Source: a virus
Taxonomy: Duplodnaviria; Heunggongvirae; Uroviricota; Caudoviricetes
IMG/VR virus record: IMGVR_UViG_2690316099_000011
DNA length: 17,410 nt
Strand: one strand, 5' to 3'
Positions 1 through 15,580 of this stretch are shown here, one piece after another. The translations under genes and the position numbers were made by a program. Under the pieces are notes generated by a model, which worked only from the letters and a program-made list of their open reading frames with translations, was not told where the DNA came from and searched no databases. Every line of letters begins with the position of its first letter. Position 1 is the stretch's first letter.

Positions 1-1
1 A

Positions 2-94
2 CGCGGTTTTAAAGTGCGTCAGAAGCCGGTTAACCGGGCCTTAAAACCGGGGACGGTGACCGCCAAAATTCGCGCCATCTGGAATAAGTTATGA
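2..94 (+). CDS. 3' end of an upstream gene of unknown function (C-terminal 30 codons, ...KIRAIWNKL*)
   Basis: Open frame running off the 5' edge of the window and ending at TGA 92-94, followed by a terminator hairpin; no recognisable motif. Confidence 0.3.
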   Translation, partial: RGFKVRQKPVNRALKPGTVTAKIRAIWNKL

Positions 95-140
95 GCGCGT
101 TTGCAGGCTGTATGAAAAATCATTCCCCCGTTAACTCCAA

Positions 141-169
141 ATCCCGCCACAGCGCGGGATTTTTATTTT
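141..169 (+). terminator. Rho-independent terminator-like hairpin (stem ATCCCGC/GCGGGAT, 6-nt loop) followed by TTTTATTTT
   Basis: Perfect 7-bp inverted repeat at 141-147/154-160 followed directly by a T-tract at 161-169, read from the sequence; it lies 35 nt upstream of the activator gene, so it may also overlap the middle promoter or operator. Confidence 0.55.
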
Positions 170-204
170 AAACTTGCCCTGTGTAATGATGACCGGAGGC
201 GGGT

Positions 205-627
205 ATGGCTGAAACACAGATGAGCATGTTTGGTGACAGCGAACAGCTGCACGCGCTGATTGACCGTCTGGATGATATTCCTGATGATGAGCTGAAAAAG
301 AACTGGCCCGGCACGCTGCGGGACCTGGTTGATGTGATCAGTGCTGAACTGCACCGTCAGGGGATTGAACCTGCTCAGGCGGGAATGCTTGCCCGTAAAG
401 TTGCGGCCGCACAGGCCGGGTACATGGGCGGGCGTGGTTATTATCTCCCGGTCGGTGAATCCCTTTTCACCGAACTGCGCAATAATGAGATTTTTTCCCG
501 CTGGAGCCAGGGCGAAAAAATTGAAACCCTGCGCCGCCACTACCAGATGTCAGAGACGCAGATTTACTCCGTTATCCGTAACCAGCGCCGCCTGCATCAG
601 GAACGCACGCAGCCCCGGCTTTTCTGA
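205..627 (+). CDS. Mor/C-family phage transcriptional activator (140 aa), probably the late-gene activator C
   Basis: 140-aa ORF with a C-terminal helix-turn-helix-like segment (MSETQIYSVIRNQRR); the size matches Mu C and it sits directly upstream of the lysozyme gene, with GGAGG 7 nt before the ATG. Confidence 0.6.
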   Translation: MAETQMSMFGDSEQLHALIDRLDDIPDDELKKNWPGTLRDLVDVISAELHRQGIEPAQAGMLARKVAAAQAGYMGGRGYYLPVGESLFTELRNNEIFSRWSQGEKIETLRRHYQMSETQIYSVIRNQRRLHQERTQPRLF

Positions 628-648
628 TATTCCGCAAATCCTGCCCAC
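621..648 (+). promoter_or_regulatory. Putative activator-dependent late promoter element (Plys-like), copy 1 of a conserved 28-nt motif TTTCTGAtatTCCGCAAAtCCTGCCCac
   Basis: 22 of 28 positions are identical to a second copy at 8894-8921 upstream of the protease/scaffold gene; both lie at the heads of late transcription units, as Plys and PI do in Mu. Confidence 0.4.
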
Positions 649-698
649 TTTTTCCCACGGTTACGCTGACTCAGAGAACACCATGAGACAGCGTAACA

Positions 699-1199
699 AT
701 GCCAAAACTCCCCGCACCCCTGCGTAAAAAGCTGATTGCCCTTGTTCTGGCCGGAGCCGGGACGTTCACCATTGCCACGCACTACACCGGCTACTGGGAA
801 GGGAAAGAAAACACCACGTACATTGATCCCACCGGCACCCCCACCATCTGTTACGGCCATACCGGCCCGGATGTGAAACCGGGGATGACAAAAACTGATG
901 AAGAGTGTCTGGAGCTGCTGGAAAAGGACATGAAATGGGCCTTTGCGGCTATCGATCGTCATGTTCAGGTGCCGCTTACCCGTGGTCAGACGGTGGCGTT
1001 GGCCTCCTGGATTTTCTGGGCCGGTGAAACGAACTTTCGCAACTCCACGCTCCTGCGCCTTATCAATGCCGGGCAGATGCCCGCGTCCTGTAAGCAGTAT
1101 ATCCGCTGGATTTATTCAAAGGGGGTGAAACTCCCCGGTCTTGAGGCCCGCCGTTCGGCGGATGAATGGTTATGTCGTTACGACTTGCCGAAAGTCTGA
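699..1199 (+). CDS. SAR endolysin (T4/lambda-type lysozyme, glycoside hydrolase family 24) with N-terminal signal-arrest-release domain
   Basis: N-terminal basic stretch then a weakly hydrophobic Gly/Ala-rich helix (LIALVLAGAGTFTIA), followed by a lysozyme E-x8-D-x5-T catalytic arrangement (EGKENTTYIDPTGTPT) and conserved HTGPD and AAIDRxVxVPLT motifs. Confidence 0.85.
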   Translation: MPKLPAPLRKKLIALVLAGAGTFTIATHYTGYWEGKENTTYIDPTGTPTICYGHTGPDVKPGMTKTDEECLELLEKDMKWAFAAIDRHVQVPLTRGQTVALASWIFWAGETNFRNSTLLRLINAGQMPASCKQYIRWIYSKGVKLPGLEARRSADEWLCRYDLPKV

Positions 1200-1311
1200 A
1201 CCGTTTCTGGCGACCGCTCATGATTGCGCTGCTGTGTGCTGTTGTGGTGCTGCGGGGTGTGCTGTGGCTGCGGTGAATAATCCCTTACCAGCCCTGATTG
1301 CCGGAGGCTGT

Positions 1312-1662
1312 ATGGCGGCGCTGGGGGTGATGAGTGTGCTGGCTGCCGTGGTATGGGGAATGCACCAGAAGACGCAGCGCCTTGAGGACAATAATCATGT
1401 GCTTGTGCGTGAACGGGACGAAGCCCGTCTGGTGCTGGCAAACCAGCAACGCACCCTGCAACTCATTTCACAAATCAGTAAGGCGGCCACGAATGAAAAA
1501 CAGCAGAACATGCAGCACAGCGAGGAACAGCAGAGCATTGTCCGCCGGTCGCTGGCAACGGTGCCTGCGGCCGCTGTTCCTGTGCCTGATGATGTGGCTG
1601 ACCGGGTGCGGCGGGCCGTCTGTGAAATACGTGCCGGTGAAGCCGGTGCCGATCCCCGCTGA
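1312..1662 (+). CDS. i-spanin (Rz-like inner-membrane spanin subunit)
   Basis: ATG at 1312 preceded by GGAGG; short N-terminus, one transmembrane helix (ALGVMSVLAAVVWGM), then a charged coiled-coil-like periplasmic domain rich in Q/E/R; position is directly after the endolysin. The six-frame ORF from 1141 is an unlikely Cys-rich N-terminal extension. Confidence 0.6.
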   Translation: MAALGVMSVLAAVVWGMHQKTQRLEDNNHVLVRERDEARLVLANQQRTLQLISQISKAATNEKQQNMQHSEEQQSIVRRSLATVPAAAVPVPDDVADRVRRAVCEIRAGEAGADPR

Positions 1663-1864
1663 ATGGCTGGCTGACTGTCTGGTCCCTTCTGTGCCGCAGC
1701 CGTTCACGTTTGGCGCATCGGTCACTTACAACCTGCAACTGCTGGCGGTGATTAAGAACTGCAACGTGGACAAGGCCAGCATCCGCCGTCTGGAGGTACG
1801 GCGACAGCATGAATTTACTGATATGGCCGGAACGTCTGCTGTTCCGGCAGGAAAGACGAAGTAA
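1493..1864 (+). CDS. o-spanin (Rz1-like outer-membrane lipoprotein), overlapped architecture in the +1 frame of the i-spanin; start uncertain (ATG 1493 or TTG 1538)
   Basis: Frame-2 ORF beginning inside the i-spanin gene with a lipobox L-T-G-C (Cys codon 1607-1609) after a hydrophobic segment LFLCLMMWL, then a proline-rich mature region; it extends about 200 nt beyond the i-spanin stop. Confidence 0.5.
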   Translation: MKNSRTCSTARNSRALSAGRWQRCLRPLFLCLMMWLTGCGGPSVKYVPVKPVPIPAEWLADCLVPSVPQPFTFGASVTYNLQLLAVIKNCNVDKASIRRLEVRRQHEFTDMAGTSAVPAGKTK

Positions 1865-1874
1865 GGAAAAAGGT

Positions 1875-2102
1875 ATGGATGATTCAGATTGTGCTCAGGC
1901 AGTCATGGAGCGGGCAACAGAACGCGCCCTTTGTGACCGGCTGACACGTAAGTGCCGGGTGGAGGATACTCCGGGCAGGCGTGTATGCGCAGACTGCGGG
2001 GGTGACATTCCGGCCGCCCGTCTGGTTGCCGTGCCGGATGCCATCCGTTGTGTGAACTGCCAGAGCATCATGGAGGCCGGTCATGTGGATCAGCATCGTT
2101 AA
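1875..2102 (+). CDS. TraR/DksA-family C4 zinc-finger protein (about 75 aa)
   Basis: CADCGG...(17 residues)...CVNCQ four-cysteine finger; ATG 1875 preceded by AAGGAAAAAGG. The longer six-frame ORF from 1809 begins inside the o-spanin gene and is not favoured. Confidence 0.7.
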   Translation: MDDSDCAQAVMERATERALCDRLTRKCRVEDTPGRRVCADCGGDIPAARLVAVPDAIRCVNCQSIMEAGHVDQHR

Positions 2103-2394
2103 AGATTATGTCGTGCCGATCCTGTCGGCAACGGCCACGGCCGGGGGGATCTTTATGGCGCTGATGCGCAAAACCTTTGTCCCCCGCGAGGCCTTTGAAA
2201 AACTCTCCGACCGGGTTGAGCGGGTGGAGAGCCGGATTTCCGGCCTGCCCACGCAGCAGGAGGTGAACAGACTCAATATCGAAATCACCACCCTGCGCGG
2301 TGAGCTTAAGGCCACCAATGCCACCCTGAAATCCGTCTCCCACCAGAACGAACTGCTGCTGGAGCAGGCTGTAAGGAAAAAACACAATGAGTGA
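2083..2394 (+). CDS. Small membrane protein with N-terminal transmembrane helix and coiled-coil domain; Mu gp25 releasin-like
   Basis: Hydrophobic segment VVPILSATATAGGIFMALM followed by a heptad-like charged region; the start overlaps the stop of the zinc-finger gene; the position is equivalent to Mu gp25. Confidence 0.55.
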   Translation: MWISIVKDYVVPILSATATAGGIFMALMRKTFVPREAFEKLSDRVERVESRISGLPTQQEVNRLNIEITTLRGELKATNATLKSVSHQNELLLEQAVRKKHNE

Positions 2395-2677
2395 TTTCAT
2401 TACTGAAGATCAGCGTCTTGTCATTCTGCGGTCGCTGGCGGATTACAACGGCGAACTGGGCGAATCCGTGCTTCAGGACTGCCTGGATGATTACGGCCAC
2501 CGCGTGTCCCGCGACACCGTGCATACCCATATTGCCTGGCTTGCCGAGCAGGGACTGGTGCGTAAGCGCACGCTTGTTAACGGTTATTTCATCGTTGAAC
2601 TGACCGGCCGGGGTCAGGATGTGGCGGAAGGCCGCGCCACCGTTCCGGGTGTGAAGAAACCACGCGCAAGGGGGTAA
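2387..2677 (+). CDS. Hypothetical 96-aa protein, possibly winged-helix; Mu gp26-position protein
   Basis: ORF with an 8-nt overlap onto the preceding gene; coding-like composition and a basic C-terminus; no recognisable catalytic motif. Confidence 0.55.
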   Translation: MSDFITEDQRLVILRSLADYNGELGESVLQDCLDDYGHRVSRDTVHTHIAWLAEQGLVRKRTLVNGYFIVELTGRGQDVAEGRATVPGVKKPRARG

Positions 2678-2679
2678 CG

Positions 2680-3261
2680 ATGGATAAGCCAACGCGTGGC
2701 CGTGTACGCAAGGTGGATTTGCTCCCCGACAGCATCCGTAAGCCGCTGCTGGAAATGCTGCGTGAAAAACGCCTGACGCAGGTCCAGATCCGCGAGGAAA
2801 TCAACCGCCTGATCCGTGAGGCGGGTCTGCCGGAAGAGCAGCAGCTTTCACCGGCGGCCATCAGCCGGGAGGCCTCCCGTAATGAGCTGATTGCCCGTAA
2901 CCTGCGTGATTTACGCGAGCAGACAAAAGCCATGATGGCCGAACTGGGGGACAAGCCGACCGGTGAAACCACGGCACTGATTCTGGAAATGTCCCGCGCC
3001 CTGATGTACCGCCGTCTGCGTGCTGCCACCGAATCCCTGAACAGCGACAGCGATGTGGATATGCGCCTTATTAAGGACATCCTCCTGTCGGCACAGCGTG
3101 CGGAAAGTGCCGCCGAGCGCAGCATTAAGCGTGAAAAAGAAATCCGGGCCGCATTTGCTGAAGAGATGGCGAACGCCGTCACCGACGAGTTGCGCGGCGT
3201 GGATGGCATGAGCGAGCAGATAGAATTCCGTATCAGGCAGATGCTGCTTGGTAAGGCGTAG
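2680..3261 (+). CDS. Mu gp27-like protein (DUF3486 family), putative terminase small subunit
   Basis: 193-aa charged, helical protein immediately upstream of the terminase large subunit, as for Mu gene 27; start 3 nt after the previous stop. Confidence 0.7.
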   Translation: MDKPTRGRVRKVDLLPDSIRKPLLEMLREKRLTQVQIREEINRLIREAGLPEEQQLSPAAISREASRNELIARNLRDLREQTKAMMAELGDKPTGETTALILEMSRALMYRRLRAATESLNSDSDVDMRLIKDILLSAQRAESAAERSIKREKEIRAAFAEEMANAVTDELRGVDGMSEQIEFRIRQMLLGKA

Positions 3262-3271
3262 GAGGTGAATC

Positions 3272-3520
3272 GTGGTAACAGATAACCGCTCACTGATGAG
3301 TAGTGCTCATCAGAAGGCATTCAGTCTTGCAACACAGTTACCTCCTGAAACCATAAAAGCGTGTCGTGAGTTGACTGAACTCAGCATTGCCGGGGAAATA
3401 TCCCTGGAACAACTGCATTCGCTGCTGGCAGAGGCTGTCACTGATGAGTTGAGTGGCGTGGACGTGATGACTGAAGAGCTTGAGTTCCGAATCAAAAGCA
3501 TTCTGACAGGTAAAGCCTGA
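3272..3520 (+). CDS. Small 82-aa protein whose C-terminus is paralogous to the C-terminus of the gp27-like protein
   Basis: GTG start with GGAGG 6 nt upstream; the C-terminal 30 residues (AEAVTDELSGVDVMTEELEFRIKSILTGKA) align with the end of the upstream gene (ANAVTDELRGVDGMSEQIEFRIRQMLLGKA); its stop overlaps the terminase ATG. Confidence 0.55.
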   Translation: MVTDNRSLMSSAHQKAFSLATQLPPETIKACRELTELSIAGEISLEQLHSLLAEAVTDELSGVDVMTEELEFRIKSILTGKA

Positions 3521-5184
3521 TGAACAAAGCCAAAGAAACGTCTCCTTCACTGATACAAATGACGCCTCCCCGCAAAATTGATCTGTCCGGTGAAAAAGCC
3601 CTGCTGGGCGTGGATGTGCCGGACAGACTTGATTTGCCCGGTGATATGCCGGTGTTTCTGGATTATCAGGCCCGCTGGTTTGAGGATGAAAGTCAGGTCT
3701 GCATTGCGGAAAAATCCCGCCGCACCGGTCTTACCTGGGCGGAAGCCGGGCGTAACGTCATTACTGCTGCAAAACCGAAGCGTCGTGGTGGCCGCAATGT
3801 GTTTTATGTGGGATCAAAGCAGGAGATGGCGCTGGAATATATTTCTGCCTGCGCCCTGTTCTCCCGCGCCTTTAACCAGCTGGCGGATGCTGATGTGTAT
3901 GAGCAGACCTTCTGGGATCGGGATAAAAAAGAAGAAATTCTGACCTACATGATCCGCTTTCCGAACAGTGGATTCAAAATTCAGGCACTGTCTTCCCGTC
4001 CGTCAAACCTGCGCGGCCTTCAGGGGGATGTGGTGATTGATGAAGCCGCGTTCCACGAGTCACTGGATGAGCTTCTCAAGGCGGCAATGGCGCTCACTAT
4101 GTGGGGCGCGCGCGTGCGTATTATCTCCACGCATAACGGCGTCGATAATCTGTTTAATCAGTACATTCAGGAAGCCCGCGAGGGGCGCAAGGATTACAGC
4201 GTCCACCGCATAACCCTGGATGATGCCATTGCGGACGGGCTGTACCGTCGTATCTGTTACGTCACCGATCAGGAATGGTCACCGGAAAGCGAGCAGAAAT
4301 GGCGTGATGATCTCTACAAAAACGCCCCGACCCGTGAGGATGCCGACGAGGAATACGGCTGTATCCCGAAAAAATCCGGCGGTGCCTATATTCCTCACGC
4401 GCTTATTGAAATGGCGATGATCCGCGACATCCCGATTCTGACGTTTGAAGCCCCGGACAACTTCATCAGCCGTGCCGCATGGCTGCGTGAATCGGAAGTT
4501 TTAACCTGGTGTGAAGAACATTTAAAACCGCTTTTAGAGAAATTAAATCCCCGTTCCCGCTTCAGCTTCGGGGAAGACTTTGCCCGCACCGGTGACCTGT
4601 CCTGCTTTGTGCTGCTGGAAATCACCGAATCCCTGGCAAAGCGCGAGGTGTTTCGCGTGGAGCTGCGCAACCTGCCGTATGCCCAGCAGGAACAGGTGAT
4701 GATGTACATCCTGACCCGCGTTCCGGCGCTGGTCGGTGCGGCGTTCGACGCCACCGGTAACGGCGGCTATCTGGCAGAAGCCGCACTGCTGGCCTTTGGC
4801 CCGGACATCATCGACTGCGTGATGTTGTCGCCGAAGTGGTACGGCGAGTGGATGCCAAAACTGAAAGCCGAGTTTGAAGATCAGAATATCCTCGTCGCCC
4901 GCCATCAGACCACGCTTGATGATTTGCGCCATGTGAAGGTGGTGAATGGTATCCCGCAAATCGACAAGGGGCGCACGAAGGACCAGAACGCAACGGCTGC
5001 GAACGCCCGCCGCCATGGTGATTTTGCCGTGGCACTCTGTATGGCAAACCGGGCGTCATACATGGAGGGATTCATCCTGGATGAATCAGCCTGTCAGGCG
5101 CTGCCGGAGCGGTCGCGGGCAATGGAGGGCGGTTATCGTGATGACGATGAGGCATATCATGAATTTGAACGGGGGTGCTGGTAG
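3520..5184 (+). CDS. Terminase large subunit (Mu gp28-like)
   Basis: 554-aa ORF following the gp27-like gene and preceding the portal; acidic-residue motifs consistent with a terminase nuclease/ATPase (VVIDEAAF, a Walker-B-like hhhhDE). Confidence 0.9.
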   Translation: MNKAKETSPSLIQMTPPRKIDLSGEKALLGVDVPDRLDLPGDMPVFLDYQARWFEDESQVCIAEKSRRTGLTWAEAGRNVITAAKPKRRGGRNVFYVGSKQEMALEYISACALFSRAFNQLADADVYEQTFWDRDKKEEILTYMIRFPNSGFKIQALSSRPSNLRGLQGDVVIDEAAFHESLDELLKAAMALTMWGARVRIISTHNGVDNLFNQYIQEAREGRKDYSVHRITLDDAIADGLYRRICYVTDQEWSPESEQKWRDDLYKNAPTREDADEEYGCIPKKSGGAYIPHALIEMAMIRDIPILTFEAPDNFISRAAWLRESEVLTWCEEHLKPLLEKLNPRSRFSFGEDFARTGDLSCFVLLEITESLAKREVFRVELRNLPYAQQEQVMMYILTRVPALVGAAFDATGNGGYLAEAALLAFGPDIIDCVMLSPKWYGEWMPKLKAEFEDQNILVARHQTTLDDLRHVKVVNGIPQIDKGRTKDQNATAANARRHGDFAVALCMANRASYMEGFILDESACQALPERSRAMEGGYRDDDEAYHEFERGCW

Positions 5185-6773
5185 TGGGACGCATAATTGA
5201 TCTTGACGGAAAACCTCTCTCCTTTGACCCGGAGATGCAGAGTACCGCGCTGGATATTCCGCAGATTGCCAGCCGTTATGTTGAGCATCCCGCCTCGGGT
5301 ATCACCCCGAACCGGGCGGCGCAGTGCCTTCGGGGGGCTGAACGTGGCGACCTGATTGCCCAGTCCGATCTGGCGGCTGACATTGAAGAAAAGGACACCC
5401 ACCTTTTTGCGGAGCTGGGCAAGCGACGTCTTGCCATTCAGGGGGTGCCATGGAGTATTGAGCCGCCACCGAACGCCAGCGCGAATGAGAAAAAGGACGC
5501 GGAAATGCTCGACGAATATCTGCATTCCGCAGACTGGTTTGATGCCATGCTGTTTGACGCCACGGATGCCATCCTGAAGGGCTATTCCTGCATGGAAATT
5601 GAGCACGGGATGCTCGGTAAAATGCACATCATCCGCGCCATCCGCTGGCGTGACAGCGGGCATTTCTGCCTTAACCCGGATGATTTGAGCGAACTGCGGC
5701 TGCGTGACGGCAGCCATGCCGGGGTGGCGTTTCAGCCTTTTGGCTGGATAGTGCATCAGTCACGTTCACGGACCGGTTACGGTGGCGCAACGGGGCTTGT
5801 CAGGACGCTTATCTGGCCGTTCATTTTCAAAAACTATTCCGTGCGCGATCTGGCCGAATTTCTGGAGGTGTACGGACTGCCGATGAAGGTCGGGAAATAC
5901 CCGTCCGGGGCAACACCGGAGCAGAAAAGCGCCCTGATGCGGGCGGTGATGGATATCGGGCGACGTACAGGCGGGATCATCCCGGCCGGGATGTCGCTGG
6001 AATTTCAGGCGGCAGCAAACGGTCAGGCCGATCCATTTGAAACCATGATTTCGTGGGGGGAGCGTTCCATCTCCAAAGCAATACTCGGCGGCACGCTGAC
6101 CACGGAAGCCGGAGACAAAGGCGCGCGCTCGCTGGGTGAGGTGCATAACGAGGTGCGCCGGGAAATCAGGGATTCTGATTTACGGCAGCTGGCTGCAACC
6201 CTGAACCGCGATCTGGTGTATCCGCTGTACGCCCTGAACACCACGCACACTATTGATATCCGCCGTCTGCCACGTATCTGCTTCCAGACCAAAGAACCAG
6301 GTGATATCACCAAAATCACCAGTGCGGTGATGCAGCTCAGTACGGGGATGGATATTTCTGATCCCTGGATACGGGAGCAGACCGGTATTCCGCAGCCCAC
6401 GCCCGGTGAAGCCATATTCCGTGTCCGTCAGAGTGGCAATGAACCGGCTCAGACCGACAGGGAAACACCACCGGAAAAACAGGAAAAAACAGAGCAGACG
6501 GCGCTGTCAGCCAGACTGCCGGAAGCGAAAAGCACGCCGCGTGATGAACTGGATGATATGGGGGACGCGGTGCCTGCCCGCCGCTTACAGGAGGCCATCG
6601 ACCCGGTACTGGAGCCGGTCATTGATGCCATCAGAACGCGGGGGCTGGCGGATGCGCTGGCAGACCTGCCTGCCCTTTATCGTGAAATGGATGATTCCCG
6701 CCTGATGACGCTGCTCAGTGATGCCATGTTCGCTGCGGAAATGAAGGGGATGCTGGATGACACAGGGGATTGA
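5175..6773 (+). CDS. Portal protein (Mu gpH/gp29-like, DUF935 family)
   Basis: About 530-aa ORF directly after the terminase with an overlapping start (GTG at 5175 or 5184, after a GGGGG Shine-Dalgarno) and an acidic C-terminal tail; position as in Mu. Confidence 0.88.
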   Translation: MLVVGRIIDLDGKPLSFDPEMQSTALDIPQIASRYVEHPASGITPNRAAQCLRGAERGDLIAQSDLAADIEEKDTHLFAELGKRRLAIQGVPWSIEPPPNASANEKKDAEMLDEYLHSADWFDAMLFDATDAILKGYSCMEIEHGMLGKMHIIRAIRWRDSGHFCLNPDDLSELRLRDGSHAGVAFQPFGWIVHQSRSRTGYGGATGLVRTLIWPFIFKNYSVRDLAEFLEVYGLPMKVGKYPSGATPEQKSALMRAVMDIGRRTGGIIPAGMSLEFQAAANGQADPFETMISWGERSISKAILGGTLTTEAGDKGARSLGEVHNEVRREIRDSDLRQLAATLNRDLVYPLYALNTTHTIDIRRLPRICFQTKEPGDITKITSAVMQLSTGMDISDPWIREQTGIPQPTPGEAIFRVRQSGNEPAQTDRETPPEKQEKTEQTALSARLPEAKSTPRDELDDMGDAVPARRLQEAIDPVLEPVIDAIRTRGLADALADLPALYREMDDSRLMTLLSDAMFAAEMKGMLDDTGD

Positions 6774-8088
6774 TTTAGGTTATGCCGCCACGCTTCCCTC
6801 AAAAGAGGCGGTGGCATACTTCCGCGCCAAAGGGGAGCATATCAGCTGGAACTGGTTCGAAACAGACGCGGATGTTCATGCCCGTTCATTCACGGCGGCA
6901 AAAGTGGCACGCCTGGACGTACTGACCACACTACAGGCGGAAGTGCAGCGTGCTGTTGATGAGGGCATTTCACAGAAAGCATTTATCCGCACGCTGACAC
7001 CCCGCCTGCAAAAGCTGGGATGGTGGGGAAAGCAGATTGTGGTGGACAGTGCAGGGAACGCGGAAGAAGTGCAGCTTGGCAGCCCCCGCCGTCTGGCGCT
7101 GATTTACAACGTGAACACCCGTGTGGCTTACAATGCCGGGCGTTACACGCAGATGATGAACAACACGGACACGCATCCGTTCTGGCAGTATGTGGCGGTG
7201 ATGGACAGCCGCACCCGCCCGGCACATTCCGCCCTTAACGGGCTGGTATTCCGCTATGATGATCCGTTCTGGAATACTCACTACCCGCCCAATGGCTGGA
7301 ACTGTCGCTGCCGTGTGCGGCCATTGTCTCAGGCCCGTCTGGATGCAATGGGGTTATCCGTTTCATCCGGTGAGGATCATCTCTCCACCCGCAATGTTGA
7401 GGCTGGCGTGGATAAACAGACCGGAGAAGTCAGAGAAATGCCGGTGACCACATATTCAGATGGCACCAGAACCATGACACCGGATGTGGGCTGGTCATAT
7501 AACCCCGGCTCGGCAGCGTTCGGCACAGACCAGGCGCTGATCCGCAAACTGATCGAGGTGAAAAGCCCGGCGTTACGGGAAATGGTGGTTCAGGAGATGA
7601 ACAACAGCCCGGAGCGGCAGCTGGCGTTCCGCATCTGGGCAAAAAACATCATGCAGACCCGGCGAGGTGGTAACGATATCCGCACGCTGGGCTTTATGAC
7701 TGAAAGCATTGCGCAGGCAGTGGAAAGCCGGACGGGAACGCCACCGGCCCGCCTGCTGGCGATGAGCGGTAAAAATGTGCTCCATGCAGACAGTGTGAAA
7801 CATCAGAATGACGGCATCGCCCTGATGCCAGAGGACTTCGGGCGCTTACCGGCAATGCTGGCAAAGCCAAAAGCGGTGCTGTGGGACAAACGGCACAACA
7901 ATCTGATGTATATCGTGGAAAATAAGGATGGCAGTGTGCAGATTGCCGTTAATGCACCGTACAGTCTGAAACGTCAGCCCGACAAACTGGATGTGATTGT
8001 GAATGCTTACCGGGTTATCAATATGGATAAGCTGAAATCGGATATCCGGGGCGGAATGCTTGAGGTGCTGGAAGGACAAATTGATTAA
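6757..8088 (+). CDS. Head morphogenesis protein, MuF family (Mu gp30/F-like)
   Basis: 443-aa ORF overlapping the portal stop by 17 nt; central region (RLALIYNVNTRVAYNAGRYTQMM...NGWNCRCRV) matches the MuF/SPP1 gp7 domain pattern as I recall it. Confidence 0.85.
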   Translation: MTQGIDLGYAATLPSKEAVAYFRAKGEHISWNWFETDADVHARSFTAAKVARLDVLTTLQAEVQRAVDEGISQKAFIRTLTPRLQKLGWWGKQIVVDSAGNAEEVQLGSPRRLALIYNVNTRVAYNAGRYTQMMNNTDTHPFWQYVAVMDSRTRPAHSALNGLVFRYDDPFWNTHYPPNGWNCRCRVRPLSQARLDAMGLSVSSGEDHLSTRNVEAGVDKQTGEVREMPVTTYSDGTRTMTPDVGWSYNPGSAAFGTDQALIRKLIEVKSPALREMVVQEMNNSPERQLAFRIWAKNIMQTRRGGNDIRTLGFMTESIAQAVESRTGTPPARLLAMSGKNVLHADSVKHQNDGIALMPEDFGRLPAMLAKPKAVLWDKRHNNLMYIVENKDGSVQIAVNAPYSLKRQPDKLDVIVNAYRVINMDKLKSDIRGGMLEVLEGQID

Positions 8089-8243
8089 CGGTCAGTGGCG
8101 GGGGTCGAACCCNNNNNNNNNNNNNNNNNNNNNNNNNNNNNNNNNNNNNNNNNNNNNNNNNNNNNNNNNNGGCACCGACTTTACCAGTTAAGCGTACACT
8201 GACCGCCTGTTTATTTTATATTCATCTTTTATGCGGAGGCAAT

Positions 8244-8769
8244 ATGTCATCCATTGATGCGGCGGTCGTGGTGGACGTTGCGCGTCTCCAGCGGGTCTTT
8301 GCCCGGCTTCAGNNNNNNNNNNNNNNNNNNNNNNNNNNNNNNNNNNNNNNNNNNNNNNNNNNNNNNNNNNNNNNNNNNNNNNNNNNNNNNNNNNNNNNNN
8401 NNNNNNNNNNNNNNNNNNNNNNNNNNNNNNNNNNNNNNNNNNNNNNNNNNNNNNNNNNNNNNNNNNNNNNNNNNNNNNNNNNNNNNNNNNNNNNNNNNNN
8501 NNNNNNNNNNNNNNNNNNNNNNNNNNNNNNNNNNNNNNNNNNNNNNNNNNNNNNNNNNNNNNNNNNNNNCGGATTATGGCGATACCTGGGCGCTGATTGG
8601 ATCAAATGAACCTTATGCAGCCATTCATCAGTGGGGGGGCCTGCCTGGTATGCCACCGGGACCGGCGGCCATTGGCGCACGTCCGTATATGGGCTTTGAT
8701 CAGGTGGCAGAACAGGAGATCATGGACGAAATCAGAAAACGCTTTAAAAAGGCCACAGAAACGCCGTAA
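8244..8769 (+). CDS. Mu G-like protein (gp31 position), interrupted by an N-run at 8313-8569
   Basis: ATG 8244 with GGAGG 5 nt upstream; N-terminus MSSIDAAVVVDVARLQRVFARLQ and a C-terminal segment ending at TAA 8767-8769 are in different frames across the gap, so the gap length is not exact. Confidence 0.55.
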
Positions 8770-8893
8770 TGGTTTAAGGTATACAAACGCATTACCTTAC
8801 CCTCTTCAGGCGCGTGTCGTGATTTTCTAACCTGTATTTAACGGGCTTTAAAATCTGCGTGAAGCGCCTTTCTCATTTTTCCCCTGTCAGCAC

Positions 8894-8921
8894 TTTCTGA
8901 AGTCCCGCAAAACCTGCCCCG
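8894..8921 (+). promoter_or_regulatory. Putative activator-dependent late promoter element (PI-like), copy 2 of the conserved motif TTTCTGAagtCCCGCAAAaCCTGCCCcg
   Basis: 22/28 identity with 621-648; lies 26 nt upstream of the protease/scaffold ATG in the only sizeable intergenic gap (8770-8946) of the head gene block. Confidence 0.4.
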
Positions 8922-8946
8922 AAAAACACCGGCTTATGCTGCCGGA

Positions 8947-10071
8947 ATGAAGACGAAAAACACGCCCAAACTTGCTTATGCCATTCTGAATGCCATCAGC
9001 CTGTCCGCAGACGGGGACGGTGACTGGTGTCAGATCATGCCAGCCGGTCGGGTAAAGGCCCGTGACGGTCGCCCGGAAAAACCGGAGGAAGGCTGGCTGA
9101 TTAACCATGCGGCCGTTGAGCGTATGGTATCCGGGGTCGTGGCACTCAATCAGCCGGTGAAGATTGACTATAACCACCAGTCACTGATTGAGGGGCATGC
9201 GGCACCGGCTGCCGGTTTTGTCATGGCCTCGCCGGAGAACTTCCGTTTCAGTGAAGAGCGGGGTTTTGAAGTGCGTCCGAAGTGGAACCCTCCGGCCATT
9301 GAACACCTGCGCAATAACGAATTTCCCTGGTTTTCCCCGGTGATTGGTTATGACGAAATCACCGGTGAACCTGTTGAGCTTCGGATGCTGGCTATTACCG
9401 GTGACCCCGGTCTGACTGGCATGAATCCTGTCGCCGCACTGTCGGCGGATGACCTTTATAACGCCTTAAACCCTCCTTTAAAGGACACCTCCATGAATGA
9501 GCAATTACGCCAGTTGCTGACGGCGCTCGGTCTGACCGTGGCCGACGGTGACGAATTTACACCGGAACTGGGCACGGCGGCGCTGTCTGCCCTTACCGGG
9601 ATCAAAACCCGTGCGGATGCGCACGACACCCTGAAAACGCAGGTTGCCAGCCTGTCGGCAGAGCTGGAAACCGCAAAAGGCACACCAACTGGCGGCACTA
9701 TTGATCTGACGAAATACGTGCCCGTTGAGACGTATAACGCCCTGCGTACCGAATATGTCGCGCTGTCGGCACAGCACGGCAGCACCACGCTGGAGCAGTT
9801 GCTGGATAAGGCTGAGTCCGAAGGACGCATTTTCAAAAGCGAACGCGGATACATGGAAGGACTCGGACAACAGATTGGCGTTACAGCACTTTCTGCACAG
9901 CTTGACGCCCGCCAGCCGGTTGCGGCTCTGACCACTCTTCAGACCGACACCGTGACCGTGCCGGATAAAAAGACCGCCACTGCTGTGCTGTCGGCTGAAG
10001 ATATCGCCGCCGCCCATCTGCTGGGTAAAACCGAAGCCGAGTTCCTGAAAATGAAAGAGGAAATGCAATAA
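8947..10071 (+). CDS. Head maturation protease / scaffold protein (Mu gpI/gp32-like)
   Basis: 374-aa ORF between the G-like gene and the major head gene; N-terminal half globular, C-terminal half Ala/Leu/Thr-rich and helical, scaffold-like. Confidence 0.8.
   Translation: MKTKNTPKLAYAILNAISLSADGDGDWCQIMPAGRVKARDGRPEKPEEGWLINHAAVERMVSGVVALNQPVKIDYNHQSLIEGHAAPAAGFVMASPENFRFSEERGFEVRPKWNPPAIEHLRNNEFPWFSPVIGYDEITGEPVELRMLAITGDPGLTGMNPVAALSADDLYNALNPPLKDTSMNEQLRQLLTALGLTVADGDEFTPELGTAALSALTGIKTRADAHDTLKTQVASLSAELETAKGTPTGGTIDLTKYVPVETYNALRTEYVALSAQHGSTTLEQLLDKAESEGRIFKSERGYMEGLGQQIGVTALSAQLDARQPVAALTTLQTDTVTVPDKKTATAVLSAEDIAAAHLLGKTEAEFLKMKEEMQ
9493..10071 (+). CDS. Possible in-frame nested scaffold protein (Mu Z-like) from an internal start in the protease gene
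   Basis: Internal ATG at 9493 preceded by AAGGA at the boundary between the globular and helical halves; Mu is known to express a scaffold from an internal start of gene I. Confidence 0.35.
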   Translation: MNEQLRQLLTALGLTVADGDEFTPELGTAALSALTGIKTRADAHDTLKTQVASLSAELETAKGTPTGGTIDLTKYVPVETYNALRTEYVALSAQHGSTTLEQLLDKAESEGRIFKSERGYMEGLGQQIGVTALSAQLDARQPVAALTTLQTDTVTVPDKKTATAVLSAEDIAAAHLLGKTEAEFLKMKEEMQ

Positions 10072-11018
10072 TGCCTACCCCGATTACACCGGCGATGATC
10101 ACCGCCCTGATGACGGGCTACCGTTCTGATTTTCAGGCCGGGATGTCCATGGCTCCGTCGCAGTACCAGAAAATTGCGATGACCGTACCGTCCACGTCGA
10201 AATCCAACACCTACGGCTGGCTTGGGCAGTTCCCGCAGTTCCGTGAGTGGATCGGCTCCCGCGTCATCGAGAAGATGAAAGCCTATGGCTACGCCATCGT
10301 GAACAAAACCTTCGAAGGCACCGTCGCCATTAGCCGCGATGACTTCGAAGACGACAATCTTGGCATCTACTCCCCATTGTTCCAGGAGATGGGGCGCGCT
10401 GCGGCGGCACAACCGGATGAACTGGTCTTTGCTGCACTGCGTGACGGGATCAGTGCGGCCTGCTATGACGGCCAGAACTTCTTTGATACCGAACACCCGG
10501 TTTACCCCAAAGTGGATGGCTCCGGGGATGCACAGATGGTCAGCAATATGTTTGTGGCAAAAACCGGCTCTGTCGGTGCACAGGCGGATTACAGTGGCCC
10601 GGCCTGGTATCTGCTCGACTGCTCCCGCGCGGTAAAACCGCTGATTTACCAGGATCGCCGCAAGGCCGAACTGGTTGCCCAGACAAAAGTCGATGAAGGC
10701 CGTGCGTTTACTGATAACGAGTTTGTGTTCGGTGCTTCCGCCCGTCGCAATGTGGGCTACGGCTTCTGGCAGATGGCCTACATGATGCAGTCACCGCTGA
10801 CGCTGGATGCGCTGTGGCACGGCTGGTCAGCCATGCGTGACTTTAAGGCTGACGGTGGCCGCAAACTCGGCATCAAACCCACCCATATTGTTGTCCCCAC
10901 TTCGCTGGAAAAACAGGCGGTGCAGCTGCTGGAGCGCGAGCTGTTCGCGGACGGTAACGCCACAGTCTCTAACGAGATGAAGGGCAAGCTGGAGCTGGTT
11001 GTCGCGGATTATCTGTAA
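10071..11018 (+). CDS. Major head (capsid) subunit (Mu gpT/gp34-like)
   Basis: 315-aa ORF whose ATG overlaps the protease/scaffold stop (TAATG); size and position as for Mu T; followed by a GC-rich hairpin. Confidence 0.88.
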   Translation: MPTPITPAMITALMTGYRSDFQAGMSMAPSQYQKIAMTVPSTSKSNTYGWLGQFPQFREWIGSRVIEKMKAYGYAIVNKTFEGTVAISRDDFEDDNLGIYSPLFQEMGRAAAAQPDELVFAALRDGISAACYDGQNFFDTEHPVYPKVDGSGDAQMVSNMFVAKTGSVGAQADYSGPAWYLLDCSRAVKPLIYQDRRKAELVAQTKVDEGRAFTDNEFVFGASARRNVGYGFWQMAYMMQSPLTLDALWHGWSAMRDFKADGGRKLGIKPTHIVVPTSLEKQAVQLLERELFADGNATVSNEMKGKLELVVADYL

Positions 11019-11025
11019 ACGGTGA

Positions 11026-11044
11026 GCCGGGCTTACGGCCCGGC
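11026..11044 (+). other. GC-rich hairpin (GCCGGGC/GCCCGGC, 5-nt loop) directly after the major capsid gene, no T-tract
   Basis: Perfect 7-bp inverted repeat read from the sequence, lying between the capsid stop and the Shine-Dalgarno of the next gene. Confidence 0.4.
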
Positions 11045-11061
11045 CCCTGCGGAGGGCAAAT

Positions 11062-11421
11062 ATGAATGAACATCACACTGTGGCAGCAACAGATGATTCA
11101 GGCCTTCAGGTCAGTGGTGACAGTCCTGTCACGGTACTGGCAGAAGTGCGTTGCAGTCGTACGCATTTTCGTCGTGCGGGGTTCCTGTTCATGCGGGGAC
11201 GCCAGCAGGTTGACGTCACCCCGGAGCAGCTTGCCCGACTGGAAGCGGAGCCATGCCTCACTGTACGAATACTACAGACGCCTGGTGATGATGCGGGAGC
11301 CGTGGCGGGTGTGGTTCATGCAGAGACCGGTGCAGATTTAGCCGAAGCCGAAACCGTACAGGATGCTCCCCGGAAAAAGACCGGCAATAACGCCAGACAG
11401 GCAAAAAAGGCGCGCGCATGA
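11062..11421 (+). CDS. Hypothetical protein (Mu gp35 position) with a basic Lys/Arg/Ala-rich C-terminal tail
   Basis: ATG 11062 with GGAGGG 5 nt upstream; C-terminus PRKKTGNNARQAKKARA; stop overlaps the next ATG. Confidence 0.55.
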   Translation: MNEHHTVAATDDSGLQVSGDSPVTVLAEVRCSRTHFRRAGFLFMRGRQQVDVTPEQLARLEAEPCLTVRILQTPGDDAGAVAGVVHAETGADLAEAETVQDAPRKKTGNNARQAKKARA

Positions 11422-11872
11422 ATTACGCCACCGAAACCGATATGCGGGCACGTTACCGCGAGGATTTGCTCAGGCCATTACTGGCCGTGCCCCGTTCGGA
11501 TGAACCGGACACGCGCAAGCTGAACCGGGCACTGACGGACGCGTCTGCCCTTATCGACAGCTATCTGTCTTCCCGTTACACGCTGCCGCTGGCGGTGGTT
11601 CCGGCGGTTCTTGTTCAGCACTGCTGCACGATTGCCTTTTATTACCTGTGCGATCAGCGGGCATCCGATCAGGCGCGTGACCGTTACCGTGAGGCGCTGG
11701 CCTGGCTGAAAGACGTCATGAACGGCAATGTGCCGGTCGGCGTGGATACCGACGGTGCGGCCCCTGNNNNNNNNNNNNNNNNNNNNNNNNNNNNNNNNNN
11801 NNNNNNNNNNATTTACCGCAGGTGCAGTCTGATGCGGCGGTGTTCGGGCGCAACCAGAAGGGCTTTATATGA
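11418..11872 (+). CDS. Mu gp36-like protein (DUF1320 family), interrupted by an N-run at 11767-11810
   Basis: N-terminal 116 aa in a clear ORF; C-terminal segment ...VFGRNQKGFI* ends at TGA 11870-11872 overlapping the next ATG; the frame differs across the N-run. Confidence 0.6.
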
Positions 11873-11881
11873 TTACGGAAA
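11869..11881 (+). CDS. 5' end of the next head/tail-joining gene (Mu gp37 position); the remainder lies in the N-run at 11882-12875
   Basis: ATG 11869 overlapping the upstream stop (ATGA); only MITETEQ is visible before the masked stretch. Confidence 0.35.
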
Positions 11882-12877
11882 CCGAACAGGCNNNNNNNNN
11901 NNNNNNNNNNNNNNNNNNNNNNNNNNNNNNNNNNNNNNNNNNNNNNNNNNNNNNNNNNNNNNNNNNNNNNNNNNNNNNNNNNNNNNNNNNNNNNNNNNNN
12001 NNNNNNNNNNNNNNNNNNNNNNNNNNNNNNNNNNNNNNNNNNNNNNNNNNNNNNNNNNNNNNNNNNNNNNNNNNNNNNNNNNNNNNNNNNNNNNNNNNNN
12101 NNNNNNNNNNNNNNNNNNNNNNNNNNNNNNNNNNNNNNNNNNNNNNNNNNNNNNNNNNNNNNNNNNNNNNNNNNNNNNNNNNNNNNNNNNNNNNNNNNNN
12201 NNNNNNNNNNNNNNNNNNNNNNNNNNNNNNNNNNNNNNNNNNNNNNNNNNNNNNNNNNNNNNNNNNNNNNNNNNNNNNNNNNNNNNNNNNNNNNNNNNNN
12301 NNNNNNNNNNNNNNNNNNNNNNNNNNNNNNNNNNNNNNNNNNNNNNNNNNNNNNNNNNNNNNNNNNNNNNNNNNNNNNNNNNNNNNNNNNNNNNNNNNNN
12401 NNNNNNNNNNNNNNNNNNNNNNNNNNNNNNNNNNNNNNNNNNNNNNNNNNNNNNNNNNNNNNNNNNNNNNNNNNNNNNNNNNNNNNNNNNNNNNNNNNNN
12501 NNNNNNNNNNNNNNNNNNNNNNNNNNNNNNNNNNNNNNNNNNNNNNNNNNNNNNNNNNNNNNNNNNNNNNNNNNNNNNNNNNNNNNNNNNNNNNNNNNNN
12601 NNNNNNNNNNNNNNNNNNNNNNNNNNNNNNNNNNNNNNNNNNNNNNNNNNNNNNNNNNNNNNNNNNNNNNNNNNNNNNNNNNNNNNNNNNNNNNNNNNNN
12701 NNNNNNNNNNNNNNNNNNNNNNNNNNNNNNNNNNNNNNNNNNNNNNNNNNNNNNNNNNNNNNNNNNNNNNNNNNNNNNNNNNNNNNNNNNNNNNNNNNNN
12801 NNNNNNNNNNNNNNNNNNNNNNNNNNNNNNNNNNNNNNNNNNNNNNNNNNNNNNNNNNNNNNNNNNNNNNNNNNNCG

Positions 12878-12949
12878 GCAGCAGAAAAACCTGCGACTGA
12901 AAAACCCGCGACTGAAAAACCCGCAGCATCAGACAAGGGGACGTCCTGA
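12878..12949 (+). CDS. 3' end of a gene (Mu gp38 position) with a C-terminal EKPAT repeat tail
   Basis: Frame AAEKPATEKPATEKPAASDKGTS* ends at TGA 12947-12949, which overlaps the sheath ATG; the upstream part is masked. Confidence 0.4.
   Translation, partial: AAEKPATEKPATEKPAASDKGTS
12884..12928 (+). repeat. Three tandem copies of a 15-nt unit (GAAAAACCYGCGACT) encoding the EKPAT repeats
   Basis: Direct tandem repeat read from the sequence; it may continue into the upstream N-run. Confidence 0.6.
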
Positions 12950-14585
12950 TGATTAACTTTGATTATATCGGCGATAACAATCGCATTCCGCTGGTACAGA
13001 TTGAAATCAATAATTCAATGGCCGTGACCGGCACTCCACCACAGCGTCAGGCGGTACTGTTGTTTGGTCAGGCTGCAATGAAAGACACCACCATTCAGGG
13101 GCGCGGTCAGCTTGATGTACCAGTACGTATTACCCGAGCTTCACAAGCAAGAGAACTCTGGGGGCGAGGTTCCATGATTGCACTGATGGTAGAGGAATTT
13201 ATCGCCATTAACCCTGACACAGAGTTATATGCCATTGCACAGGGGGCTGGAACAGGTCAGTCCAGGGCATGCGTGATGAATATCATTGGAACAGCATTGG
13301 CAGACGGGGTGTTAAGTGTTTACATCGGCGGTCGCCGTTACCTCCTGCCCGTCAGTAAGGGGAAAAAAGGTAAAGAGCTTGTGGAAGAGCTGGCTAAGGT
13401 CATTAACGCTGACACTGATGCGCCATTCACTGCTATCGCAGCTGAAGTCAGTGGTGATAATGCTGAAGGACTTAAAGGGAGCATGGGGGTTAACGCCCGC
13501 TTTATCGGTGAATGCTCAGCTCATGATTTACGGGTGAACTATTATGACGGTGAAACTACACCGGCCGGTCTTACGCTGGAGCTCGTCGCGCCAACACAGA
13601 AGGCAACAAACCCCGATATCACCCGTAGCGTCTCAGGGATGGGGAATCGTCAGTACAACTACATCGTCATGCCCTATAAGGATGCGGCAAATCTCAAAAT
13701 TCTGGCGGATGAACTGCTGAAACGCTGGGGACCGGTAAAAATGTCGGACGGTATGGTCTGGATGGCGCATACCGGCACCTTCGGTACGGCAACCAGTTTT
13801 GGTGAATCCCGTAATGACTTCCTGTTTACCTGCACTTCTATTCCTAAAGCACCAGAGCCGGATTATGTCTGGGCGGCCTCCATTTNNNNNNNNNNNNNNN
13901 NNNNNNNNNNNNNNNNNNNNNNNNNNNNNNNNNNNNNNNNNNNNNNNNNNNNNNNNNNNNNNNNNNNNNNNNNNNNNNNNNNNNNNNNNNNNNNNNNNNN
14001 NNNNNNNNNNNNNNNNNNNNNNNNNNNNNNGCGCCCTCCCTGTCAACGGATCCGGCCCGACCATTACAGACACTGGCGCTGCCTGCCCGTATGGCACCTG
14101 AAGCACCGGCTCGTCTGACGCGGGAAGAGCGAAACAGCCTGCTTTATACCGGCATGTCCACGGTGACCGTTGCGGCCGCTGATGTGGTGCAGATTGAACG
14201 TCAGGTGACGATGTACCGTCAGAATGCATACGGCGAAAGCGATCCCAGCTATCTGGATGTAGAAACCATCTACACCCTGTCATATCTGCGTTATTCCCTG
14301 CGCACCTTTATCACGCAGCGTTTCCCGCGCCACAAACTGGCCGATAACGGTACTCCCGTCCGGCCCGGTCAGAATATCGTGACGCCGGAGATTATGACGC
14401 TCCAGCTGATTGCACTGGGGGAAGAATGGGTGGAACTCGGGCTGGTCGAAAATCTGGACACCTTTAAAAAGAATCTGCTCGTGGAGCGCAACACAAAAGA
14501 CCGTAACCGTCTGGATGTGATGTGTACACCGGATCTGGTTAACCAGTTCCGCTTCATGGCCGCGCAGATCCGTTTCATTTTGTGA
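12949..14585 (+). CDS. Contractile tail sheath protein (Mu gpL/gp39-like), interrupted by an N-run at 13886-14030
   Basis: About 300-aa N-terminal part plus a 164-aa C-terminal part ending at 14585, directly upstream of the tail tube gene; size and position fit a sheath protein; the frame differs across the gap. Confidence 0.7.
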
Positions 14586-14593
14586 GGTAAGGC

Positions 14594-14959: not shown

Positions 14960-14973
14960 TCAGGAAAAATGCA

Positions 14974-15577: not shown

Positions 15578-15580
15578 CCC

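Follow-up and report, generated by a model that had tools for sequence, protein, structure and literature searches.

How does a Mu-like prophage lyse its host when its lysis region carries no recognizable holin gene? This question is raised by a stretch of viral DNA of 17,410 nucleotides (Caudoviricetes; IMG/VR record IMGVR_UViG_2690316099_000011), referred to here as the window, in which positions 699 to 2394 code for an endolysin, a pair of spanins, a TraR/DksA-like zinc-finger protein and a membrane protein of the DUF2730 family. In phage Mu, Chamblee et al. (2022, mBio) found no holin: gp22 is a signal-arrest-release (SAR) endolysin, gp23 and gp23.1 are the spanins, and gp25, the prototype of DUF2730, is a 'releasin' required for the exit of gp22 from the membrane, a dependence due to two neighbouring basic residues of its tail, K6 and K7; gp22 and gp25 supplied from two plasmids suffice for lysis (PMC9239132). 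Across transposable phages, DUF2730 genes are found no more than five genes away from the endolysin, and their products have N-out/C-in transmembrane domains (TMDs) with an RR or RK motif at the membrane junction (PMC9239132). We propose from homology that the genes at 699 to 2394 very probably form the late lysis cassette of an Sp18-type Mu-like prophage of Escherichia coli and work like the Mu system. Again, we found within the cassette one overlooked gene, an open reading frame (ORF) of 36 codons called ORF36, between the endolysin and the inner-membrane spanin (i-spanin).

The stretch is a Mu-like (transposable) E. coli prophage of the Sp18 type. Over positions 84-6647 a single base separates it from a prophage of E. 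coli JKHS016 (L003, NZ_CP147059.1), and positions 650-2450 share about 90% nucleotide identity with Sp18, which is the Mu-like prophage in strain Sakai of E. coli O157:H7. The gene order of 205-5184 is collinear with C(21)-22-23-23.1-24-25-26-27-28 of phage Mu, and transposase, GemA, Mor and the Mu portal were found in relatives. Related cassettes were observed in 231 of 5426 complete E. coli genomes (about 4%, O157:H7 Sp18 included), and the same cassette order is kept in Citrobacter, Salmonella, Serratia and metagenomic relatives; a contig scan with the DUF2730 protein as query returned one locus only, from Citrobacter braakii. The ratios of nonsynonymous to synonymous substitution (dN/dS) were 0.19 for the endolysin gene (lys), 0.49 for the i-spanin, 0.35 for the zinc-finger protein and 0.15 for the DUF2730 protein, indicating purifying selection. 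All four elements named in the initial annotation of this DNA, namely endolysin, spanins, zinc-finger protein and membrane coiled-coil protein, were recovered where it had placed them (Table 1).

The endolysin displays the catalytic triad E34-X8-D43-X5-T49 and is 39% identical to gp22, in an alignment that begins from residue 1. Its N-terminus consists of a basic tail, MPKLPAPLRKK, followed by LIALVLAGAGTFTIATHY (residues 12-29), in which 10 of the 18 residues are Gly, Ala or Thr and which aligns with the SAR domain of gp22. The tail contains K3, R9 and the dibasic pair K10 K11 directly before the anchor. With a cut-off for TMDs of at least 1.6 in mean Kyte-Doolittle hydropathy over 19 residues (KD19), the best value of this anchor is 1.39, against 1.8-2.35 for the true TMDs nearby. 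A muralytic domain behind a weakly hydrophobic, Gly/Ala/Thr-rich N-terminal TMD identifies the protein by sequence as a SAR-type endolysin, as had been claimed before in place of a cytoplasmic enzyme, and a membrane-tethered form that is later released into the periplasm is predicted, as for gp22. In a separate survey of 66 viral contigs (L058-L120) with endolysins 41-50% identical to that of the window, nearly all had SAR-like N-termini.

The DUF2730 protein is 33% identical to gp25 (BLASTP E 2e-17) and shares with it the SHQxELLLExAV motif and the Arg-Lys pair at the membrane junction. Its N-terminal TMD (residues 10-28, KD 1.8) is followed by R29 and K30, of which R29 is invariant in 12 homologues, and its N-terminal flank is net neutral, so that an N-out/C-in orientation like that of gp25 is predicted from the positive-inside rule only. 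The AlphaFold2 model is all-helical, with helices at 2-30, 35-53 and 58-102 (predicted local distance difference test score, pLDDT, 72), and a clean a/d heptad runs from V61 to A96. This is the most strongly conserved protein of the cassette by dN/dS, and its gene is the fifth after lys, counting ORF36, which is within the five-gene distance described for releasins. Family, likeness to gp25, a TMD with an RK junction and a position near the endolysin together mark the protein as a putative releasin, and by analogy with Mu it would be needed for the release of an endolysin with an R9 K10 K11 tail. The initial annotation had recognized a single-TMD coiled-coil protein in the position of gp25 and had named gp25 as a releasin; both statements hold, the latter being the published mechanism for Mu (PMC9239132) and hence not new.

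The spanins, earlier noted as overlapped, also agree with this arrangement. The i-spanin is 24% identical to gp23 and has a TMD with a KD of 2.22. Its residue 17, counted from 1273, aligns to position 16 of the phrog_214 profile, a register which fits a start at 1264-1273. Counted back from the last base of the ORF36 stop, the start codon (GTG1264; ATG in other lineages) is 12 nt away in all lineages, with GGGG 6 nt 5' of GTG1264, and the gene most likely starts there and no further upstream. The longer annotated starts, ATG1162 and GTG1234, were ruled out, since dN/dS in that frame is 2.2 upstream of about 1264. The outer-membrane spanin (o-spanin) is 44% identical to gp23.1 and carries an LTGC lipobox at 1598-1609 (Cys codon 1607-1609), the same as in gp23.1; its gene starts within the i-spanin gene and ends 202 nt beyond the i-spanin stop, which is the 'overlapped' architecture. 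An i-spanin TMD with an Rz-like match, together with a lipobox in an o-spanin whose gene extends past that of the i-spanin, indicates by sequence a two-component overlapped pair.

Public records treat these genes unevenly. Their i-spanin starts vary among strains between the window equivalents 1234, 1264 and 1312 (L003, L004-L007, L054), and the 1234 start crosses ORF36 in another frame, as does the start used for the Sakai 'endopeptidase'. The o-spanin ('lysC') is either annotated from a start 3' of its lipobox Cys (window 1622 or 1646) or, as in Sakai, left without an entry. The errors in the public annotation of these cassettes are systematic: a misplaced i-spanin start, an o-spanin that is cut short of its lipobox or not there at all, and an uncalled ORF36.

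Table 1. Features of the lysis cassette and its borders in the window
Feature	Position	Strand	Evidence and remarks
Mor/C-family late transcription activator, equivalent of Mu C	205..627	+	Pfam Mor E 7e-31; 40% identity to Mu C, E 9e-35
Intergenic region with a presumed late promoter under activator control	628..698	+	position of Mu Plys; inferred
SAR-type endolysin, GH24 muramidase, Mu gp22 homologue	699..1199	+	Pfam Phage_lysozyme E 1e-36; phrog_7; 166 aa
ORF36, unannotated 36-codon gene of a single-pass membrane peptide (MVMSLRLAESLNRFWRPLMIALLCAVVVLRGVLWLR)	1166..1276	+	alternative start ATG1172 gives 34 aa; TMD KD 2.35
i-spanin (Rz/LysB-like)	1264..1662	+	start GTG1264 by homology; alternatives GTG1273, ATG1312; phrog_214 E 1e-29
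o-spanin (Rz1/LysC-like lipoprotein), overlapped	1493..1864	+	start ATG1493 or TTG1538; Pfam LysC E 2e-15; phrog_3001 E 1e-39, phrog_456
TraR/DksA-family zinc-finger protein, 75 aa, Mu gene-24 position	1875..2102	+	Pfam zf-dskA_traR (PF01258) E 1e-11; phrog_54 E 1e-16
DUF2730 protein, homologue of Mu gp25 releasin	2083..2394	+	Pfam DUF2730 (PF10805) E 1e-22 over residues 6-97; phrog_736 E 4e-32
gp26-like winged-helix protein, downstream boundary	2387..2677	+	64% identity to Mu gp26; phrog_436

Because the proteins of the window carry each of the sequence features expected of these roles, the cassette should work like that of Mu, and the following course of lysis can be proposed. Late transcription would be switched on by the C/Mor-family activator at a promoter upstream of 699. 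Relatives share a visible conserved block in 628-698, and a scan for sigma-70 promoter and terminator consensus gave none between C and lys and none above the shuffle expectation; the missing consensus fits an activator-dependent promoter. Sec would export the endolysin, whose weakly hydrophobic signal-anchor would hold it in the inner membrane, and the basic cytoplasmic tail (K3, R9, K10, K11) would lock it there, as we infer from the genetics of gp22. The DUF2730 protein, lying N-out/C-in with its helical domain in the cytoplasm, would then act as the releasin and free the anchor from the bilayer, upon which the muramidase would refold and cut the wall, with neither a holin nor membrane depolarisation involved. 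Finally, the overlapped i-/o-spanin pair would fuse the inner and outer membranes. The TraR-like protein would take no part in lysis itself; it most likely binds RNA polymerase (RNAP) in its secondary channel, which would shift host transcription off ribosome synthesis late in infection. ORF36 would add an N-in/C-out peptide, barely more than a TMD, translationally linked to both neighbours.

ORF36, which starts inside the 3' end of lys (lys stop 1199) and was overlooked by the initial annotation, is a real protein-coding gene as judged by its sequence evolution. It is free of indels in 30 Sp18-type loci, and its 36 codons are kept without indels in 9 Citrobacter-type loci at 68% nucleotide identity; 36 codons are also found in the L047/48 lineage and in Serratia (L050), and 37 codons in L055/56, whose endolysins are only 49% identical to that of the window. 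Over codons 13-36, where no other gene overlaps, dN/dS is 0.35-0.43 in its own frame against 2.2 when read in the frame of the i-spanin; stops close the lys frame. Variable sites prefer the third codon positions of ORF36 up to about 1272, and those of the i-spanin frame from about 1273. Residues R16, L23, V26, R30, G31, L33 and L35 are invariant, and R6, W15, P17, L29 and W34 nearly so. The copy in Sakai Sp18 reads MVMSLRLAESLNRFWRPLMIALLCAVLLLRGVLWLR.

A phmmer search with ORF36 against 1.84 billion representative proteins gave one true homologue of 34 aa (P0022) and two repeat-protein artefacts, while tblastn over 50,697 phage records gave only two Shiga toxin (Stx) phage records with a Mu-like insert, plus non-significant matches to i-spanin N-termini. 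A metagenome scan with the ORF36 alignment found only relatives at least 86% identical, and the gene is annotated in none of the public cassette records inspected. It is missing from Mu and from the Mu-proximal L057 lineage, in which the i-spanin gene itself spans the endolysin stop. ORF36 is the one new item, absent from Mu, in an otherwise largely ordinary cassette. A -1 frameshift fusing ORF36 to the i-spanin was considered and rejected, as no slippery heptamer was seen at the junction in the window or in the Citrobacter-type loci and the product would carry two TMDs. In the viral contig L032 (2501-3079), the endolysin is fused in frame with the C-terminal 25 residues of ORF36 (...DLPKSLNRFWRPLMIALLCAVLLLRGVLWLR) via indels near the lys stop, a fusion that probably reflects a mutant allele or faulty sequencing.

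What the peptide does can be approached from its shape. ORF36 is a TMD-only peptide with a basic juxtamembrane WRP motif, and the positive-inside rule predicts an N-in/C-out orientation with virtually no periplasmic part, a topology which the anchors of SAR endolysin and i-spanin have too; in effect it mimics the tail plus anchor of a SAR endolysin. As our leading guess, it may modulate the release of the endolysin or the function of the spanins. In the more specific form that ORF36 is a functional part of releasin-type lysis, either as a decoy or partner of the DUF2730 releasin (an 'anti-releasin' timer, antiholin-like) or by acting on the i-spanin anchor, we regard this as unlikely. A precedent is Lcc6 of Shewanella phage LambdaSo, a small single-TMD protein which is an essential partner in SAR-endolysin lysis (10.1101/2024.01.23.576932). 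If the 'anti-releasin' reading were true, it would mean lysis-time tuning for a holin-less phage; ORF36 sits exactly where lysis control would be expected and is amenable to simple plasmid lysis assays.

ORF36 may be derived from the 5' end of an older i-spanin gene. As a profile it scores 14 and 11 bits against the N-terminal anchors of two DUF2514-type i-spanins, from phage NX263 and phage Vi II-E1 respectively, above all 1992 background ORFs, through a shared WRPL...GVLW pattern. Because these targets were pre-selected by non-significant tblastn matches (E 2-8), the resemblance is a lead and not a result. An extension of this idea is that ORF36 is a non-functional relic of that 5' end (cytoplasmic tail plus TMD), left after module exchange and kept open only by ribosome delivery to the i-spanin start. 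Its layout agrees with such an origin: the start overlaps the 3' end of lys, the exact site of the i-spanin gene start in Mu and L057, the stop overlaps the i-spanin start in every lineage, the anchors just mentioned score above background, and the conserved R30-G31 codons (CGGGGT) double as the Shine-Dalgarno-like GGGG before GTG1264. However, a coupling device alone needs no purifying selection on the peptide, and the dN/dS of ORF36 is near that of the i-spanin; little or no variation is seen at W15, R16, P17, R30, G31, L33 and L35 between lineages with endolysins only about 50% identical; and the i-spanin resemblance itself is not statistically significant. A relic of this kind is therefore doubtful in our view, and we keep to a modulator of release or spanin function as the leading guess.

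With regard to the lack of a holin, no ORF of at least 30 aa in the window, whichever the strand, contains more than one segment of KD19 at or above the cut-off, and none of the annotated proteins of the near-identical JKHS016 prophage has two TMDs. Since no such ORF occurs in the window, the 'holin-less' description given earlier to the cassette stands as far as sequence can show. Among the 66 loci with related endolysins, a neighbouring multi-TMD ORF was noticed in 7 by a crude hydropathy threshold, and the pair of a type-I DUF2730 gene and a TraR gene in 3 by a narrow DUF2730 hidden Markov model.

Several points weigh against a holin-less, Mu-like operation of the cassette. The window begins in gemA, so that the early region of this prophage lies outside it and could hold a holin; in Sakai Sp18 (L053), ECs_5772 (8912-9097, 61 aa, two TMDs) lies upstream of gemA. 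ORF36, as a small membrane protein in a late lysis cassette, could be holin-like or antiholin-like. With 11 acidic and 12 basic residues, the DUF2730 protein has a cytoplasmic domain of about neutral charge, whereas Mu gp25 was described as predominantly anionic. The prophage copy may be defective despite its intact cassette, given a deletion in gemA, or the window may have been edited. Moreover, the dependence on a releasin, the topologies and the lack of holin activity are all drawn from sequence and from analogy with Mu.

The first two of these points could be combined into the view that a holin or pinholin, whether ORF36 or a membrane protein of the early region, controls the SAR endolysin, with the DUF2730 protein being accessory or unrelated to lysis. 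ORF36 is indeed a conserved small membrane protein within the late cassette, with one strongly hydrophobic TMD (Table 1), Sakai Sp18 has a second membrane protein gene upstream of gemA, ECs_4959 (9648-9944, 98 aa, one TMD), beside ECs_5772, and SAR-endolysin lysis can depend on small single-TMD proteins, as the case of Lcc6 shows (10.1101/2024.01.23.576932). Nevertheless, the single TMD of ORF36 is not the architecture of a holin, which has two to three TMDs (classes I and II, pinholin) or a large periplasmic domain (class III), and the peptide ends one residue past the hydrophobic stretch and has no charged hydrophilic C-terminal tail, and it matches no holin family in Pfam or PHROGs. The two Sakai proteins are products of early genes; they also match no holin family, their matches being phrog_19804 and phrog_17269, both of unknown function, and nothing corresponding to them was seen among the membrane proteins annotated in the JKHS016-type prophage. 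They are unlikely as holins by analogy with the non-late membrane proteins gp19 and gp20 of Mu, which are dispensable and show no triggering by dinitrophenol (DNP) (PMC9239132). Again, the strongest conservation in the cassette belongs to the DUF2730 protein. Control by a holin is very unlikely on this evidence, and release by the DUF2730 protein is preferred.

As for the state of this copy, 217 bp of gemA are deleted out of frame at window 84/85, a segment present in JKHS016, Sakai Sp18 and every other relative examined that covers the stretch, and because of it GemA ends early (...IRAIWNKL*). In the near-identical JKHS016 prophage, the head-tail region is moreover inverted and truncated. These facts could mean that the cassette in this genome is the inert remnant of a decaying prophage. 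Against that, every cassette ORF is intact in the window, the difference from JKHS016 over the whole of the shared 84-6647 is a single base, purifying selection acts on the family as a whole, and the prototype Sp18, which is predicted to be intact, packages its DNA efficiently (PMC2669165). We consider an inert remnant quite unlikely and a working cassette the better account.

The zinc-finger protein stands between the spanins and the releasin, as the initial annotation had it, a place which that annotation found odd and from which it derived a conceivable role in lysis timing. The start ATG1875 is preceded by a Shine-Dalgarno sequence, AAGGA, and was preferred to an ORF start at 1809 for this reason and for its agreement with relatives. 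A family profile from six lineage representatives matches TraR in PDB entry 6n57_M (E 1e-7 over residues 2-69) and DksA in 1tjl (E 5e-8). In these representatives D2, D5 and A7 are invariant and align with the N-terminal DEADEA (DxxDxA) motif of TraR, and the protein has a C4 zinc ribbon of CxxC-17-CxxC spacing. In TraR itself, acidic residues of the N-terminus (D3, D6) extend to the active-site region of RNAP. Phage homologues of TraR, such as lambda Orf73 and P2 Orf82, act by binding RNA polymerase; rRNA and r-protein promoters are inhibited and the yield of phage goes up, and D3A and D6A are substitutions that were tested in lambda Orf73 (PMC9239242). Owing to the full-length TraR match and this action of the phage homologues on RNAP, the zinc-finger protein is predicted to reprogram host RNA polymerase as its most likely role.

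The location is in fact a conserved gene-24 slot. It holds the four-Cys gp24 in Mu, and in every relative examined a clear TraR-type gene lies directly upstream of the DUF2730 gene and overlaps it. Mu gp24 shares the CxxC-17-CxxC spacing; its hhalign match to the window protein reaches only 70% probability (E 4e-5), it has no zf-dskA_traR match in Pfam, its BLASTP comparison with TraR-like proteins is not significant, and it belongs to phrog_3260 where the window protein belongs to phrog_54. The two proteins are positional equivalents and possibly distant homologues.

A part in lysis timing could still be imagined if the TraR-like protein acted through the expression or activity of the overlapping releasin gene. 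The overlap between the 3' end of the zinc-finger gene and the DUF2730 start is 20 nt in the window and 10-20 nt in relatives, it recurs with the same gene order in all of them, and translational coupling of the releasin to the zinc-finger gene is possible. An effect of that overlap would, however, belong to the mRNA and not to the protein, which is TraR-like over its full length including the N-terminal DxxDxA motif and whose phage homologues repress rRNA and r-protein promoters (PMC9239242). Because gp22 and gp25 of Mu lyse cells from separate plasmids in the absence of gene 24 (PMC9239132), a timing role for the protein is unsupported, and we hold it to be highly improbable; action on RNAP is preferred. 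The initial interpretation is therefore retained for the SAR endolysin, the spanins, the releasin and the lack of a canonical holin, and abandoned for the odd placement and the timing role of the zinc-finger protein.

Various other observations concern the surroundings of the cassette. In L034, L035, L040 and L051 (e.g. L051 3426-3800), which are Citrobacter-/Salmonella-type relatives, an extra gene of about 110-125 codons stands between the o-spanin gene and the TraR-like gene; its product (MTEPT...) has no Pfam match, and the gene resembles cargo inserted in the cassette. A single Mor/C-family gene separates gemA from the endolysin (window 1-700; L003 13095-14172), and the same holds in all relatives examined, where neither a second Mor paralogue nor counterparts of Mu genes 18-20 were found at this position. 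Downstream, an 82-codon ORF at window 3272-3520 (+), between the gp27-like small terminase gene and the large terminase gene (TerL), matches phrog_30922 (E 1e-55), and its C-terminal 30 residues duplicate the C-terminus of gp27 (57% identity to Mu gp27 162-191, E 2e-7); it is present in JKHS016 and HH35 and absent from Sakai Sp18, in which gp27 abuts TerL.

Further to the right, the head-tail region of L003 at 18657-28168 (against window 6648-15892) is inverted and partly deleted, with truncated portal, protease and tape-measure genes, whereas window 6648-15892 retains the Mu-like forward order. Runs of N totalling 2995 bases (8113-8170, 8313-8569, 11767-11810, 11892-12875, 13886-14030 and 15894-17400) mask parts of the head/tail region of the window and account for the dips in composition there. 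At the right end of the JKHS016 and Sakai Sp18 prophages (L003 30751-33422 and L053 34939-37588), beyond the readable part of the window, a trio of DUF6645, DUF1378 (60 aa, one TMD) and DUF826 genes lies between the invertase and com/mom. Genes like DUF1378 and DUF826 occur near the lysis genes of lambdoid and Stx phages.

The wider meaning of the locus is that a prophage family common in E. coli has the releasin-type, holin-less lysis of Mu, as do its relatives in Citrobacter, Salmonella and Serratia, at a time when very little literature deals with releasin action and lysis timing in holin-less phages.

In comparison with known systems, Lcc6 of LambdaSo (10.1101/2024.01.23.576932) resembles ORF36 as a small single-TMD phage protein alongside a SAR endolysin and offers a precedent for accessory membrane peptides. 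It differs in having 65 aa with a 43-aa cytoplasmic tail, in being encoded far from the cassette and in working alongside a pinholin; the two are likened by description only. TraR of the F plasmid, with lambda Orf73 and P2 Orf82 (PMC9239242), shares with the zinc-finger protein its size (75 aa against 72-79 aa for TraR chains in PDB), an alignment over the full length, the four-Cys zinc ribbon and the acidic N-terminal DxxDxA motif. The window gene differs in that it lies in the late lysis/packaging operon of a transposable phage and not in an early (pL) or transfer operon, and RNAP binding by its product is a prediction only.

Sakai Sp18 (ECs_4961-ECs_4966) has the same genes, ORF36 included, at the nucleotide identity given above for 650-2450; it differs by being without the 82-codon ORF between gp27 and TerL, and its annotation omits the o-spanin and ORF36. 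In phage P2, the lysis region is ordered K-lysA-lysB-lysC, with the membrane-protein gene lysA between the endolysin and the i-spanin. The window shares with it a membrane-protein gene in this location, the overlapped architecture and an o-spanin of the LysC/Rz1-like Pfam type, but ORF36 is far smaller than LysA with no similarity detected, and the window cassette is without a Y-type holin.

Closest of all is the Mu cassette gp22-gp23-gp23.1-gp24-gp25 (PMC9239132). The lysis proteins of the two are only 24-44% identical, the window has the extra 36-codon membrane ORF between endolysin and i-spanin, slot 24 holds a clear TraR-family protein where gp24 has no Pfam match, the middle genes gp18-gp20 are lacking between gemA and the activator, and the DUF2730 cytoplasmic domain is roughly neutral in contrast to the anionic one of gp25. 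Common to both are the gene order after the C/Mor activator with gp26, gp27 and TerL downstream, a SAR muramidase with a dibasic pair before its anchor, spanins that are overlapped and show an LTGC lipobox, a four-Cys protein in slot 24, a DUF2730 protein in slot 25 and no multi-TMD holin candidate. The cassette is a further case of the published releasin-type lysis of Mu, with little that is new in it apart from ORF36.

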